The notes beneath the pieces were generated by a model, which was not told the origin of the DNA, did not search any database, and worked only from the letters and a program-made list of their open reading frames with translations. The translations under genes and the position numbers were made by a program. 64,000 nucleotides of DNA, taken from the sequence record PQ529420; one strand, written 5' to 3'. Of the stretch, positions 25,038 to 29,699 are shown piece by piece. How positions within the stretch are numbered: position 1 is the first letter of the stretch; every line of letters begins with the position of its first letter. This DNA comes from Escherichia phage Eryne.

Positions 25038-25397
25038 ATGTGTGTTCCTCTTAGCAGTCCACTGCTGTTAGAATTTTACAAAGCATGGATGGAAGATCAT
25101 TCCTCAATGCATCGTGAGAATGTTGGTTTGTGTAATTGCCTTATGGATTACCTGGCAACCACTATGTCAAAGAAAAAACCTACGGAAGAAGATATAGAAT
25201 ATTTCAAGATGGTTCGTAGCAAAACGCTGGAAGAGATGAAACTGCAATTCACGTGTGCTGGGCTATCCTCCTTCCTACCCTTTAATTATGATCTTCTGTG
25301 TTATGAAGATGAAGGTAAGACACATTCTTGCCATACCAACCCAAAGAGATTGCAGTGGGTGAAAGATCGTATTGCCGATTCATGCAAGGGTGTGTAG
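25038..25397 (+). CDS. paralog family member 1 (Cys/His-motif protein)
   Basis: Start moved to MCVPLSS (RBS AAGGAG); motifs LxFYKAW, GLCxCL, FTCAGL, LPFN, CHTN, RLQWVKDRI. Confidence 0.5.
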   Translation: MCVPLSSPLLLEFYKAWMEDHSSMHRENVGLCNCLMDYLATTMSKKKPTEEDIEYFKMVRSKTLEEMKLQFTCAGLSSFLPFNYDLLCYEDEGKTHSCHTNPKRLQWVKDRIADSCKGV

Positions 25398-25398
25398 A

Positions 25399-25554
25399 AT
25401 GTTGGAATTGATTGGGATAGTTTGGTTAATGATAAAAGCAGGTTTCGTCGGTTTCGGACTTCTTATAATTTTGTGTATGTTCCTTAGTGCAATACAGGCA
25501 TTCTTTTATCTGCTAGGTAGAATACTTAAGTTAGGAGGTGATCATGAAAAGTAA
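25399..25554 (+). CDS. small membrane protein
   Basis: Start moved to MLELIGIVWLM...; hydrophobic. Confidence 0.4.
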   Translation: MLELIGIVWLMIKAGFVGFGLLIILCMFLSAIQAFFYLLGRILKLGGDHEK

Positions 25555-25912
25555 TATTCCGTTGAGTAGTGCAGCTTTAATACGATTCTATAAAGCATGG
25601 ATTGCCAACCATCCTGCAATGAATCGCACAACGAGTGGCTTATGTGGTTGTCTGGTAGATTATGTAGATGATTTTGTTGGTGAGGTAACTAGAGAAGAAG
25701 ATAAAAGATGGCGTGATCGTTTGTTGGATAGTTTGAAATACGAAATGAGGAAACAATTTACATGTGCAGGACTGGACTACAATCTTCCGTTCAATGCAGA
25801 TTGCATGGATTACCTTTCAGAGTGTATAGACTTGGCGTGTCATACCAACACGTTACGTCTTCAATGGGTGAAAGACAGAATCGAAGATGCAAATAATGCT
25901 TGCATTGAATAG
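25544..25912 (+). CDS. paralog family member 2
   Basis: RBS AGGAGG; same motif set as 25038-25397. Confidence 0.55.
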   Translation: MKSNIPLSSAALIRFYKAWIANHPAMNRTTSGLCGCLVDYVDDFVGEVTREEDKRWRDRLLDSLKYEMRKQFTCAGLDYNLPFNADCMDYLSECIDLACHTNTLRLQWVKDRIEDANNACIE

Positions 25913-25983
25913 AAATGCCTGTACACTGTGTTCCATAAAATATGCAATATCGCGCATAACAAAACTACTAATGAGAGGTGTAA

Positions 25984-26442
25984 ATGAAAACTGTATCTTT
26001 GTATCTTGCTAACACGGAGCGTGTACATAATCTTGTAAAAGAATGCGGTGTGAGTGTTCAATTTAACATAGGAACGCCTTCCGTGGTGACAGGCAGTGAG
26101 ATGTGTGTTATTGATTTCATCAATGAATATTTTCGTGGGAAGCCTATTGCTCGTCACTTCATTCGAGAAATGCGAGATGTACAACAGGATTATGAATTCT
26201 ACCCAGAAATTTGTGAACGCTATGAAACGATTCTTAGTTCTGTAGAAGATCCAGATACCAGTGAAACAGGTGTTTCCCACTTGCTGTGGATGTTGAATGA
26301 AATTCAGGATGGGTGTAATGGTATGTCTGAAACCAAACGCCATCGTTGGTTAGGCTATATTCAGGGTGTTATGGTTATGAAAAACCTTATTACAGTGAAT
26401 GATGAACGTAATGCTACACGCCCCGTCTTTAATGGAGCATAA
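25984..26442 (+). CDS. hypothetical protein
   Basis: ORF track; antisense ORF 25861-26343 judged spurious. Confidence 0.5.
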   Translation: MKTVSLYLANTERVHNLVKECGVSVQFNIGTPSVVTGSEMCVIDFINEYFRGKPIARHFIREMRDVQQDYEFYPEICERYETILSSVEDPDTSETGVSHLLWMLNEIQDGCNGMSETKRHRWLGYIQGVMVMKNLITVNDERNATRPVFNGA

Positions 26443-26443
26443 C

Positions 26444-26659
26444 ATGAAAAGCATTCAGGTGTGTATTGAAAATAATTGTGGTTATCTGGGGTTGACACAC
26501 GTTGCTTTCCCTCTTATGTTAGATGCCGATATCGCTTACAGTGGAGTTGCTTATGTGTCATTCAAGACAATGAGCCAAGTACCTGGCTGGAAGTGGGAAG
26601 TAGTTGATGTTGTTGAAGGAGAAGACTATGTTTTCCTTCCACACGAATATACTGTTTAA
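26444..26659 (+). CDS. hypothetical protein
   Basis: Start moved to MKSIQV with RBS. Confidence 0.45.
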   Translation: MKSIQVCIENNCGYLGLTHVAFPLMLDADIAYSGVAYVSFKTMSQVPGWKWEVVDVVEGEDYVFLPHEYTV

Positions 26660-26674
26660 AAAGAGGAAAAGAAG

Positions 26675-26851
26675 ATGGATAAACAAACTACTGTGTACTT
26701 AGTAACAAAGAATACCCCAGGCTGGAGCCAATGCAGCACTGTACCTTACAAAATCTGTGCAACATTAGAACTAGCACAACGTGCAGAAGCAGAAGTGAAT
26801 GCCATGCAATACAGCTATGGTGAAATCATTCCGTTTACCCTTGAACAATAA
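26675..26851 (+). CDS. small hypothetical protein (58 aa)
   Basis: Hand-translated MDKQTTVYLVTKNTPGW...; RBS AAGAGGAAAAG. Confidence 0.4.
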   Translation: MDKQTTVYLVTKNTPGWSQCSTVPYKICATLELAQRAEAEVNAMQYSYGEIIPFTLEQ

Positions 26852-26862
26852 GGAGTTGTGTA

Positions 26863-27827: not shown

Positions 27828-27836
27828 GGAGAAGTC

Positions 27837-28205
27837 ATGCAAGAGAATAGTAAAGTGTGTAGCATGAAAAGCAGCCCTTATTTGCTACAATTTTATGAGT
27901 GGTGGTTAGAACAAGAAGATACAAACTTTAGTAAAAAGCATTATGGTCTTTGCACGTGTCTTGTAGACTTCTTATACAATATTGCTTTGATAAAAGATGT
28001 TGAGAATGTAGCAAAGCTCCAATCCTCTGTACGAGAGGAAATGAAGGAACAATTTAAGAAAGCGGGTTTGAACCATTTACATCCGTTTAATACGGATTTC
28101 TCGCACTACTTTACGGAAACAGAACTAGGCATTGCACACCTTAATAAAGAACGTGTACAATGGGTGATTGATCGTATTCGTGATATGGAGGAATACAATG
28201 GTTAA
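27837..28205 (+). CDS. paralog family member 3
   Basis: LQFYEWW, GLCTCL, HPFN, RVQWVIDRI motifs; RBS AAGGAGAAG. Confidence 0.55.
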   Translation: MQENSKVCSMKSSPYLLQFYEWWLEQEDTNFSKKHYGLCTCLVDFLYNIALIKDVENVAKLQSSVREEMKEQFKKAGLNHLHPFNTDFSHYFTETELGIAHLNKERVQWVIDRIRDMEEYNG

Positions 28206-28407
28206 GTTTAAAACTTTCTGTGCAATCACTGTTTGTCTTATTCTTGCATACGTGTTATTCTCTAGTATCATTCGTTTAGGTGAGTATATGGCAAGAGAAG
28301 CTCGTGAAAGTGAAGCTAAAAAAGAACAGTGCATCGTGTTAAAGCACCAAAGGGATGCTGAAAAATTTCTTGAACAGGATTGTGGGCGCTATGTGAATTA
28401 TAATTAG
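28198..28407 (+). CDS. small membrane protein, paralog A (partner 33196-33420)
   Basis: Start moved to MVKFKTF; shares KEQCIVLKHQRDAEKFLEQDC with partner's KEKCIILKHKKQAEDFLKNKC. Confidence 0.5.
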   Translation: MVKFKTFCAITVCLILAYVLFSSIIRLGEYMAREARESEAKKEQCIVLKHQRDAEKFLEQDCGRYVNYN

Positions 28408-28416
28408 GAGGGAAGT

Positions 28417-28665
28417 ATGTTAGATATTTTTACCTTTGATCGTGTTGGTACACCGATTACCGAAGAAGAACGTACCAAAATTGAACAAGAATTGGATGCT
28501 TTACGTGCGTCTCTTACAGACACAGCCTCACTACAACGTGAAGCTGCACATCTCACAGAGATCACTGGTATTCAGTGGAGCACGGAGTGGGTTGTAATTA
28601 CAATTGAAGCGGATATTTGGGGACATGAAGAGACGCTACGTACCGGAGTAGTAACGGTTTGGTGA
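28417..28665 (+). CDS. hypothetical protein
   Basis: ORF track. Confidence 0.5.
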   Translation: MLDIFTFDRVGTPITEEERTKIEQELDALRASLTDTASLQREAAHLTEITGIQWSTEWVVITIEADIWGHEETLRTGVVTVW

Positions 28666-28711
28666 TAGATGTTATTCTTTTGTGTTTCTTGATATATAAA
28701 TAGGAGGGTTT

Positions 28712-28936
28712 ATGGTAAAACGTCTGGAATGGGATGCGTGTACTGCTCACGCTTGTCACTGTGATATTGTTGAAGATCCTAATGGAGAGATGGTGTATTA
28801 TGAGGATTACGAAGCATTGCACAATGCTGTGATTGCTTTACTGGATGATATTAGCTCACGCTATCCAGGACAACAATTCACGTGTCCACATATCCAACTA
28901 TTAGCCGAACTTACGGAGTATCCAAGTGTTCCATAA
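28712..28936 (+). CDS. Cys/His-rich small protein, paralog B (partner 34081-34344)
   Basis: CDIVEDPNGEMVYYEDYEAL versus partner CDIVPDPEGDYVLLADYNKL. Confidence 0.5.
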   Translation: MVKRLEWDACTAHACHCDIVEDPNGEMVYYEDYEALHNAVIALLDDISSRYPGQQFTCPHIQLLAELTEYPSVP

Positions 28937-28937
28937 T

Positions 28938-29105
28938 ATGGGTGTCCCTGAACAACTGCTCTTTATTGTAGGATTAGTAGGCTTATTGGCGGCTGGCGCT
29001 AAAGCCGCTTCTCACACGCATCACATAATGTTAAGATTTCTATTCCTACTCCCTTCTATCCTCGTACTATTAGTCATACTGATCGATAACATTTTGCACA
29101 ATTAA
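28938..29105 (+). CDS. small membrane protein (55 aa)
   Basis: Hand-translated MGVPEQLLFIVGLVGLLAAG... Confidence 0.35.
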   Translation: MGVPEQLLFIVGLVGLLAAGAKAASHTHHIMLRFLFLLPSILVLLVILIDNILHN

Positions 29106-29114
29106 GGAGAGGTT

Positions 29115-29699
29115 ATGAGTAAAATTATACCAAGCAGTTATGAATTATTACAGTTTTATGTGTATTATATAGACTGGGTTAGTAGATTGAATGTTAAAGA
29201 CAATGCGATGTTTAGTAAAAACATCTGTTTAACAGAAAGTATCTTCCGTTACTGGCACACAGGTAGAAAGTGTACACACAGTGAAGCTATGCGCATTGTA
29301 GGAGAATATCTGGAGCAATTGCAAAAAGCAGAGCTACCTGTCCTTCACCCATTCAATGAATCTAAAGAAGAATTAGAACAAGAGTGTAGAGAAGGTAAGT
29401 GCCATTTGAATGAAAAACGTATCGAATGGGTGAGGCAACGTTTAGCCGATGCAGGAAAGACTCCTAGTGACTCTGACTATACGTGGTATGATGTAGAGGG
29501 TTTAGTTCAAGGTTTTGAGGCTTGTGCTATAGATAATACCAACTTTGCCAAAGTTTTATGCGAGGCTTATGACCTGGCAGATAAAATCCGAAATCATGGA
29601 TGGAAACAAGAGCATAAAGAATCATATGAACGCCTTGACAAGATTTTCAAACAGATCTATTCTAACCACAAGAAGATGTTCCAAATGGAGGATGTGTAA
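29115..29699 (+). CDS. paralog family member 4 with C-terminal extension
   Basis: LLQFYVYY, HPFN, CHLN, RIEWVRQRL motifs; RBS AAGGAGAGG. Confidence 0.55.
   Translation: MSKIIPSSYELLQFYVYYIDWVSRLNVKDNAMFSKNICLTESIFRYWHTGRKCTHSEAMRIVGEYLEQLQKAELPVLHPFNESKEELEQECREGKCHLNEKRIEWVRQRLADAGKTPSDSDYTWYDVEGLVQGFEACAIDNTNFAKVLCEAYDLADKIRNHGWKQEHKESYERLDKIFKQIYSNHKKMFQMEDV

Follow-up and report, generated by a model that had tools for sequence, protein, structure and literature searches.

We identified four homologous proteins, P1 to P4, encoded within 5 kb of the putative left genome end in the window (the whole 64,000-nucleotide stretch analyzed, from a Justusliebigvirus, a phi92-like E. coli myovirus). 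They are members of an ordinary but well-defined phage protein family, whose domain has never been curated or characterized. The family is large and, as judged by homology, phage-restricted. It is defined by a domain of ~105 aa that is predicted to form a compact five-helix bundle. No published study of P1-P4 was found in the literature on Justusliebigvirus, phi92, phAPEC8, Bas61/Bas62 and Stephanstirmvirinae.

The four paralogs and their family

All four ORFs lie on the plus strand, and their CDS limits match the annotation in related phages. They are P1 (25038..25397, 119 aa), P2 (25544..25912, 122 aa), P3 (27837..28205, 122 aa, equivalent to phi92 gp006) and P4 (29115..29699, 194 aa, equivalent to phi92 gp010). 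Their similarity is far above chance, since BLASTP E-values for all pairs range from 7e-35 (P1-P2, the closest pair, with 47% identity) to 2e-8 (P2-P4, the weakest). An HMM built from P1-P4 and run against the 637 six-frame ORFs of the window (>=40 aa) recovered exactly these four proteins, the next best hit having E=0.17; the broader family HMM found the same four members and no others. This broader HMM also found exactly four members in the phage Nernie, a complete 146,258-bp genome that is 98% identical. The first-pass annotation had described a four-member paralog family with positionally conserved motifs, and both points are confirmed. The MAFFT alignment has 23 invariant columns and places in register SSxxLLxFYxxW, GLCxCL (reduced to NIC--L in P4), FxCAGL (FKKAGL in P3, LQKAEL in P4), L/HPFN, CHxN (AHLN in P3) and RxQWVxDRI (RIEWVRQRL in P4).

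P1 consists of a single five-helix domain (family HMM E=6e-31). P1 and P2 are preceded by the Shine-Dalgarno sequences AAGGAG and AGGAGG, 7-8 nt 5' of the ATG, and the P2 protein is 90-98% identical to the Phapecoctavirus copies. P4 is the outlier, being without the second Cys, with a 3-residue insertion ahead of the Trp and with a 78-aa C-terminal extension. In P4, the N-terminal domain (~residues 5-116) is followed by this extension (29463..29696, plus strand), for which three helices are predicted at low confidence (pLDDT 55-74). Outside Justusliebigvirus, the extension occurs only in a few Cronobacter or E. coli phages (59 phage records in all by tblastn, each annotated as hypothetical), and a word-indexed homologue search with it gave zero candidates.

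All four proteins match phrog_2510, with E-values of 4.5e-22 (P1), 4.1e-24 (P2), 9.4e-26 (P3) and 4.4e-17 (P4). P4 also matches phrog_27059 over positions 1-194 of 194 (E=9.8e-139). The domain is represented by phrog_2510, phrog_27059 and phrog_6418, all of 'unknown function'. These clusters are the same family as P1-P4, but they assign neither a function nor a fold, define no domain and split what one HMM unites. The whole family counts 1,267 representatives (clusters at 50% identity) when the cut-off is E<=1e-3, and 487 when it is E<=1e-10. Homologues, all uncharacterized, occur in phages infecting Pectobacterium, Rhizobium, Burkholderia, Klebsiella and Delftia. Judged by domain matches, multiple copies per genome are found in independent lineages: Phapecoctavirus records have 3-8 or more places with the domain, and the straboviral Yersinia phage JC221 has four consecutive copies between the DNA ligase and baseplate hub genes. 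A sub-alignment scan of the genome collection gave a single Bacillus match, which is spurious.

The domain also occurs in other architectures. Tandem two- or three-domain proteins account for 14 of ~173 representatives, and a TM-like helix stands in frame directly ahead of the domain in 3 of ~170 (P0032, P0065, P0138). In the early region of a Mu-like prophage, the domain carries a Cys-rich tail and lies between gam and gemA. It is further fused to modules of lambdoid prophage mosaic early proteins, among them EaA-like N-terminal modules and DUF551. In such proteins (P22 EaA, Ead/Ea22-like), the domain is one module among several, alongside DUF551 and a WNACRAAMLNGGK tail; tblastn matches of the N-terminal segment of the fusion relatives fall on genes annotated EaA. 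P1-P4 may be likened to ea22 as early, non-essential genes, and Ea22 is known for swappable C-terminal domains (PMC10834534). However, P1-P4 are stand-alone domains without a coiled coil or an N-terminal Ea module, and the Ead_Ea22 Pfam family matched neither P1-P4 nor any of the ten fusion relatives scanned (E<=0.01). The solved Ea22 C-terminal domain has a mixed alpha-beta fold (PMC10834534), whereas the domain of P1-P4 is predicted to be a helical bundle. Large lytic phages carry groups of small, uncharacterized early genes, such as 30.x and cd.x of T4, that resemble the P1-P4 locus in location type and gene size. However, no named family member was found in T4 (30.x to cd region), nor in the early region of phage Mu, and no T4 gene name or function is transferable.

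Structure prediction, which had been suggested as a check, gave a confident helical bundle for P2 (AlphaFold2 pLDDT 93.1, pTM 0.86), and the N-terminal domain of P4 was modeled with pLDDT >90. A PDB fold search with the model found no similar solved structure, be it of an enzyme or of a known sponge protein. The comparison with known anti-defense families (Acb, Tad, Gad, Apyc, Ocr and others) covered folds solved in the PDB, none of which resembles the model. Sequence-profile searches of the PDB with two alignments returned noise or nothing, and the BFVD search returned only uncharacterized homologues. For P1-P4, no Pfam family reached its gathering score, NCBIfam gave sub-threshold noise only and PADLOC gave no matches; among the 118 members scanned, no Pfam match was found at E<=0.01. 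The family has more than 1,200 clusters, occurs in the early accessory regions of diverse phages and has a confidently predicted fold, yet it has neither a solved relative nor a Pfam entry; it therefore makes up a substantial portion of phage dark matter.

Several specific assignments were rejected. The HPFN of P3 and P4 recalls Fic/Doc proteins, which are defined by the motif HPFx[D/E]GN[G/K]R together with the Fic helical fold; the His is not conserved in the family, and the domain falls short of this definition. The HEPN assignment failed on a reversed motif order and an absent fold match. DNA-mimic anti-restriction proteins are very acidic (pI about 4) and display a surface carboxylate array; P1-P4, with a pI of 5.2-6.1 and a net charge of -2 to -5, are only mildly acidic, and no structural match to mimics of the Ocr/ArdA type was found. 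A lipobox at GLC was dismissed because a signal peptide is absent.

Genome position, copy number and selection

The segment 24463..24804 is 96.5% identical over 342 nt to the DTR-L feature of phage BME3, whose direct terminal repeat has a size of 342 bp (PMC12210895). We take this segment to mark the putative physical left end of the genome. P1 follows 234 bp downstream of it, P1-P4 also adjoin a repeat-rich non-coding region, and several related records (phi92, VEcB, W22) are numbered from near the segment. All four genes fall in the 5 kb that follow the left terminal repeat, amid small hypothetical genes, and are therefore probably among the first transcribed. Thus, the region is very probably early, in agreement with the first-pass annotation; we infer the early expression of P1-P4 from position only.

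The locus is plastic, with 4, 3 or 2 copies per related phage. P3 and P4 are kept in all nine Justusliebigvirus loci examined. P1 and P2 are accessory: P1 is missing from some Justusliebigvirus genomes, and relatives show presence/absence variants of both genes, among them a P1/P2 chimera with its junction at an 11-nt microhomology. By this distribution, P3 and P4 are fixed in the genus and P1 and P2 are dispensable. The phi92-like phages are thus a handy study system, offering natural 4-, 3- and 2-copy variants and the chimera, with two members dispensable and two fixed. The BASEL phages Bas61 and Bas62 are tractable on E. coli K-12.

The family had been attributed to repeated duplication under host-interaction selection, and this proposal held only in part. 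Of the four, P1 and P2 alone look like the product of a local duplication. Recent tandem duplication of all four genes was rejected, as no nucleotide similarity is detectable between the paralogs; moreover, leaving aside its orthologues, P4 is most closely related to family members found elsewhere and not to P1-P3. P1-P4 are anciently diverged paralogs. Ongoing diversifying selection found no support either. The orthologue dN/dS values are 0.19 (P1), 0.26 (P2), 0.07 (P3) and 0.08 (P4), within the range of neighboring genes (0.03-0.36). The orthologues of every paralog are under purifying selection, and positive selection on them was rejected.

Conserved polar residues and possible roles

Residue conservation was counted over 118 diverse family members (positions in P3 numbering). 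Arg106, Tyr20 and Pro83-Phe84 are present in 118/118, Cys39 of the GLC motif in 117/118, and Glu68, Gln72 and Asn103 in >93%. Altogether, ten polar residues are strongly conserved in the ~105 aa (Ser13, Tyr20, Cys39, Glu68, Gln72, Asn85, Tyr91, Glu94, Asn103, Arg106). In the P2 model, predicted helix 2 opens with GLC, and helix 5 has H-x-N at its N-cap.

The best explanation of the data as a whole, to which we tentatively give somewhat less than an even chance, is that P1-P4 would be cytoplasmic early accessory proteins working through binding to host or defense partners. Invariant hydrophobic residues and polar Tyr, Glu, Gln, Asn and Arg, the latter buried as judged by helical periodicity, would hold a conserved helical scaffold, and variable loops (~residues 21-36, 46-64 and 86-100) would be shown to the partners, each paralog retaining its own stable target. 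The domain behaves as a portable module, found in tandem, in EaA-like, DUF551 and other lambdoid fusions, with a Cys-rich tail and occasionally with a TM helix. Our best guess for such a protein is an early, dispensable host-interaction protein; we infer both a binding, rather than catalytic, role and the host or defense targets. If the proteins turn out to inhibit host defense or machinery, they would form a widespread new class of inhibitors; otherwise, defining the domain would still improve how hundreds of phage genomes are annotated. It is conceivable, though on balance unlikely, that the domain is a new fold representing a major unrecognized class of 'first-in' phage proteins, each paralog neutralizing a different host immune or housekeeping target, with the nearly invariant Cys-Arg-Glu-Gln-Asn as a new inhibitory or catalytic site. 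In this reading, the genes would adjoin the genome end entering first, in phi92-like, T4-like, P22-like, Mu-like and many other Proteobacteria phages.

Two observations stand against the binding role. The ten conserved polar residues would suit a catalytic or small-ligand site too, and the low orthologue dN/dS is not expected from a fast arms race. The domain could instead be a small enzyme or small-molecule binder, with Cys39 and the His, Asn, Glu, Gln, Arg and Tyr as active site or pocket, for example a thiol-dependent hydrolase, a transferase, a redox centre or a pocket sequestering signaling nucleotides. We consider this quite unlikely in any of these forms. It would account for the near-invariance of Cys39 and its polar companions, the placement of GLC and H-x-N at helix ends and the strong purifying selection, and the two- and three-domain tandems would suit an oligomeric sponge. 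However, the His is just 71% conserved, with Tyr, Arg, Ser or Pro in its place, and no solved enzyme or known sponge protein is similar. By helical spacing, Arg106 shares a face with Trp109 and Val110, and Glu68 and Gln72 lie beside Met69 and Phe73; this spacing would fit a structural network that is buried. A housekeeping-type enzyme would also rarely be present as several divergent paralogs in one genome.

The terminal repeat and the repeat-rich non-coding region immediately adjacent to the genes bring to mind a role in the phage's own program, as regulators of early-to-middle transcription, in DNA-end protection, or as replication or packaging factors acting near the repeat. The presence of P3 and P4 in 9/9 genus members at dN/dS 0.07-0.08 agrees with such a role, as does the location of the domain between gam and gemA/mor in Mu-like prophages. 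We nevertheless regard it as improbable: P1-P4 are mildly acidic and show neither a DNA-binding motif nor a family match, P1 and P2 can be lost freely, and the family spans Mu-like, P22-like, T4-like and phi92-like phages with unrelated replication and packaging strategies.

Between P1 and P2 lies a mini-ORF (25399..25554, plus strand) encoding a hydrophobic, single transmembrane-like peptide of 51 aa, which is annotated as a CDS in EC_OE_11 and pEC-M2929 and has no PHROG match. Its start lies 1 nt past the stop codon of P1, and its last 11 nt overlap the start of P2. Such abutting or overlapping stop and start codons, together with the TM-like helix of P0032, P0065 and P0138, could point to a P1-TM-P2 module at the inner membrane, anchored by the hydrophobic peptide or cooperating with it and, for example, serving superinfection exclusion or addressing a membrane-bound host system. 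This is very improbable, given that the helix is found in so few representatives, that EmilieFrey and PATM carry a deletion of the mini-ORF and 3- or 2-copy genomes do not have it, and that P3 and P4 have no such partner.

Cysteine and histidine positions

Metal binding through conserved Cys and His residues, as put forward in the first-pass annotation, was not borne out. Cys39 is the only Cys conserved family-wide. At position 41, the second Cys of GLCxC occurs in 13/118 members and is replaced by Asn in 85/118, the Cys of FxCAG (position 75) is retained in about 4/118, and in CHxN the Cys (position 100) is found in 67/118 and His101 in 84/118. Among the Cys/His positions, one Cys and the His are the only ones invariant in P1-P4, two Cys positions being missing in P3 and two in P4. 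Three to four positionally conserved Cys/His ligands were thus not found across the family, and on the alignment the domain does not qualify as a canonical Cys/His metal-binding motif.

A metal such as zinc, bound via Cys and His in the whole family or in the P1/P2 clade alone, has little probability; it would suit the 7 Cys each of P1 and P2 and the separate Cys-rich C-terminal tail of some distant relatives, but the confident helical bundle needs no metal and zero zinc-finger Pfam families were matched. The P1/P2 clade of Stephanstirmvirinae usually combines the GLC Cys, the second GLCxC Cys, the FxCAG Cys and the His, so a lineage-specific site formed from this Cys trio is possible. Zinc-ribbon or Cys/His metal-binding small phage proteins, such as Lar-like restriction alleviation proteins, are similarly small, Cys-containing and early; the family differs from them in its one conserved Cys, its predicted all-helical fold and its lack of a zinc-finger family match. 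The genes flanking P1-P4 are small unknowns throughout, with weak Lar-like and goF-like matches, among them the nearby ORF 28712-28936 with a weak Lar-like PHROG match (E 8e-4).

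Paralogs P1–P4 and their genomic position

The first-pass annotation had described a four-member family with ORF starts at 25038, 25544, 27837 and 29115, and all four ORFs were found as described: P1 (25038-25397, 119 aa), P2 (25544-25912, 122 aa), P3 (27837-28205, 122 aa) and P4 (29115-29699, 194 aa), all on the + strand. Canonical ribosome-binding sites precede the chosen ATGs of P1 and P2, and the records of other annotators give identical ORF limits. In a MAFFT alignment of P1–P4, the motifs listed for the family are all in register and 23 columns are invariant, i.e. the shared motifs are positionally conserved. 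In pairwise BLASTP comparisons, P1-P2 gave the strongest match (E 7e-35, 47% identity) and P2-P4 the weakest (2e-8). An HMM of the four proteins, compared with 637 six-frame ORFs of the window, matched P1–P4 only (next E=0.17); the broader family HMM likewise found only these four in the window and exactly four members in the complete Nernie genome (146,258 bp). P4 is the most divergent of the four and carries a 78-aa C-terminal extension. P3 and P4 are the counterparts of phi92 gp006 and gp010, respectively. P1–P4 are a real, well-delimited paralog family.

Some 55 E. coli phages belonging to the genus Justusliebigvirus (phi92-like Stephanstirmvirinae with genomes of ∼146 kb) share 95-98% identity with the region 24900-29800, Nernie being the closest (97.9% identity over the whole stretch); every gene under this match is hypothetical in all records inspected. 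Two small neighboring ORFs on the + strand show weak PHROG similarity to proteins with typical host-takeover functions: 28712-28936 resembles a restriction alleviation protein of the Lar-like type (E 8e-4), and 26863-27315 resembles goF, a modulator of mRNA metabolism (E 3e-6). The direct terminal repeat (DTR) annotated in phage BME3, whose size of 342 bp has been confirmed (PMC12210895), maps to window 24463-24804 with 96.5% identity, and P1 starts 234 bp past this segment. Genome numbering in phi92, VEcB and W22 starts at about the same DTR/P1 point. Given the DTR-homologous segment and this numbering, P1–P4 are among the first genes of the left arm, in a row of small, functionally uncharacterized + strand ORFs, a position that suggests early expression.

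The non-coding ∼1.45 kb upstream of P1 (window 23536-24980) is associated with a palindromic motif, AATGATAATCATT, in four copies (23512-23528, 23570-23586, 24461-24497 and 24656-24692), and AATGATAATNATT has three exact matches against 0.1 expected by chance. At 24463-24481, exactly where the DTR-homologous segment begins, the sequence fits the Fur-box consensus of E. coli, GATAATGATAATCATTATC, apart from 2 mismatches (0.07 such sites expected); it could be a Fur site, a phage operator or a site for terminase/end recognition. The terminal 415 bp of the BME3 record duplicate a segment ∼0.5 kb further in (locus 1-1520 compared with window 23975-25047). This linear deposit appears to carry a DTR copy appended beside the internal one, and its 'DTR-L' coordinates need care.

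Family size and distribution in phages

The close relatives retrieved by a word-indexed search numbered only 30, and all of them lack Pfam domains. A profile of 21 sequences, run exhaustively with HMMER against 1.84 billion representatives, yielded 1,267 proteins at E<=1e-3, including 487 at E<=1e-10. Most members are stand-alone proteins of 100-125 aa; among ∼173 proteins with a match to the ∼105-aa domain common to P1–P4, tandem forms have two copies in 13 cases and three copies in one. No Pfam match was obtained at E<=0.01 for 118 diverse members, nor any NCBIfam or PADLOC match for P1–P4. The four proteins match PHROGs 2510, 27059 and 6418, all listed as unknown function. One domain query against the GenBank phage collection matched 215 records at E<=1e-6, and among the matches listed (45 of the 215 records) all are hypothetical or unannotated. 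P1–P4 belong to a large uncharacterized phage family, already catalogued in PHROGs without a function, and represent another case of small early accessory gene families. The family is a good, tractable dark-matter target.

Members of Phapecoctavirus possess 3-5 copies in the fetched loci, and tblastn matches at as many as 8-10 places in a record. Yersinia phage JC221 (Straboviridae) has four consecutive copies between the DNA ligase and baseplate hub genes (locus 2962-4306), one of which (3523-3960) is unannotated in the record; the equivalent region of T4 contains no family member. In enterobacterial prophages, the domain is a single module within mosaic early proteins, whose other modules include DUF551, a WNACRAAMLNGGK tail and EaA-like N-terminal segments (their tblastn hits are to genes that carry an EaA annotation). 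Swappable C-terminal domains of this sort have been described for Ea22 (PMC10834534). One Mu-like prophage encodes the domain joined to a Cys-rich C-terminal tail, at a position between gam and gemA/mor; the domain is absent from phage Mu itself. All of these contexts are early regions, and general knowledge of such regions suggests that the domain is dispensable in the prophages. Four unannotated 'Campylobacter phage' records, MG065645 (A145), MG065689 (A110a), MG065639 (A150) and MG065656 (C3), are ∼97.7% identical to the Justusliebigvirus region, and the C. jejuni host given for them looks doubtful.

Selection, recombination and copy number

Pooled Nei-Gojobori estimates over nine Justusliebigvirus loci gave dN/dS of 0.19 for P1, 0.26 for P2, 0.07 for P3 and 0.08 for P4, and 0.03-0.36 for the 12 neighboring genes with an estimate. 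The orthologs are under purifying selection with no signal of diversification, contrary to the host-interaction (arms-race) selection initially proposed. Of the duplications also proposed, only that of P1 and P2 looks local: the paralogs share no nucleotide similarity, and the closest non-orthologous relatives of P4 are family members from elsewhere, not P1–P3.

Four copies are present in the window, Nernie, EmilieFrey, PATM, EC_OE_11 and pEC-M2929, three in JohannJBalmer and BME3, and two in PD06 and ESCO9. In JohannJBalmer (locus 1639-2004) and BME3 (locus 1511-1876), P1 and P2 are replaced by one chimera, which follows P1 through RLQWVKDRI and continues with the P2 tail EDANNACIE. Its junction lies within an 11-nt microhomology, TGGGTGAAAGA, coding for part of the conserved WVKD motif. 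The chimera is a deletion product, a clear case of paralog recombination that lowers copy number. The P1/P2 pair is demonstrably dispensable.

Recent exchange between genera is suggested for P2, since its homolog in the Phapecoctavirus phiWec179 (locus 8012-8380) shows 98% protein identity (dS 0.11), whereas the flanking DNA is only ∼80-85% identical. A 166-aa protein from a metagenomic contig (P0017) joins the P4 N-terminal domain (window 29115-29460), at a common 'DAG', to the C-terminal part of ORF 31081-31524. This fusion implies a ∼1.9-kb deletion in some relative, and the region downstream of P4 would therefore be deletion-prone too. Phage pEC-M2929, without the gene at 29699-30385, is an example of loss downstream of P4.

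Predicted structure, residue conservation and candidate functions

The AlphaFold2 model of P2, computed from a 21-sequence alignment, is very confident (mean pLDDT 93.1, pTM 0.86) and consists of five helices (10-20, 33-45, 51-74, 87-95 and 103-121). Foldseek comparison of this model with the whole PDB gave a best E of 1.9, and profile searches of PDB sequences found nothing; BFVD matches are uncharacterized homologs only, from phages of Pectobacterium, Rhizobium, Burkholderia, Klebsiella and Delftia. The P4 N-terminal domain is confidently predicted to have the same fold, and the P4 extension is modeled as three helices with low confidence (pLDDT 55-74). The best-supported reading, which we hold tentatively, is that the domain would be a portable, phage-specific helical module serving early accessory proteins; these would most likely act by binding host or defense components, with every paralog retaining its own stable target. 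There is no sign of an unusual mechanism in the data.

Across 118 diverse members (P3 numbering), Tyr20, Pro83, Phe84 and Arg106 are conserved in 118/118 and Cys39, the Cys of GLC, in 117/118. Leu16, Phe19, Gly37, Leu38, Glu68, Gln72, Phe73, Leu78, Asn103, Trp109 and Val110 exceed 93%, and Ser13 is present in 107. This sole invariant Cys, located at the N-terminal end of predicted helix 2, and the many conserved polar residues would suit a Cys-dependent enzyme or small-ligand binder. However, the i/i+3/i+4 spacing gives Arg106 the same face as Trp109/Val110 and brings Glu68/Gln72 next to Met69/Phe73, and would fit a buried structural network equally well as an active or ligand site; we regard such an activity as unlikely. 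A phage-internal role, regulatory or at the DNA ends, is somewhat less probable still.

Metal binding by conserved Cys and His, as first proposed, is quite improbable. Position 41 (the second Cys of GLCxC) is Cys in 13/118 members and Asn in 85/118, the Cys preceding the His (position 100) is kept in 67/118 and His101 in 84/118. A family-wide site is therefore not supported, one Cys alone being near-invariant. The FTCAG Cys is essentially limited to the P1/P2 clade, where it occurs together with the GLCxC pair and may form a clade-specific site. Neither the metal-binding nor the arms-race reading is borne out by the data.

Equally improbable is a P1-TM-P2 module with a membrane-associated role, which would involve a 51-aa hydrophobic mini-ORF (25399-25554, + strand) that begins 1 nt beyond the stop codon of P1 and extends 11 nt into the start of P2. 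The mini-ORF has no PHROG match and is annotated in two related phages. Three homologs (P0032, P0065 and P0138) echo it with a transmembrane-like helix in frame ahead of the domain. In EmilieFrey and PATM it is deleted, and its remnant now forms a new P1 tail.
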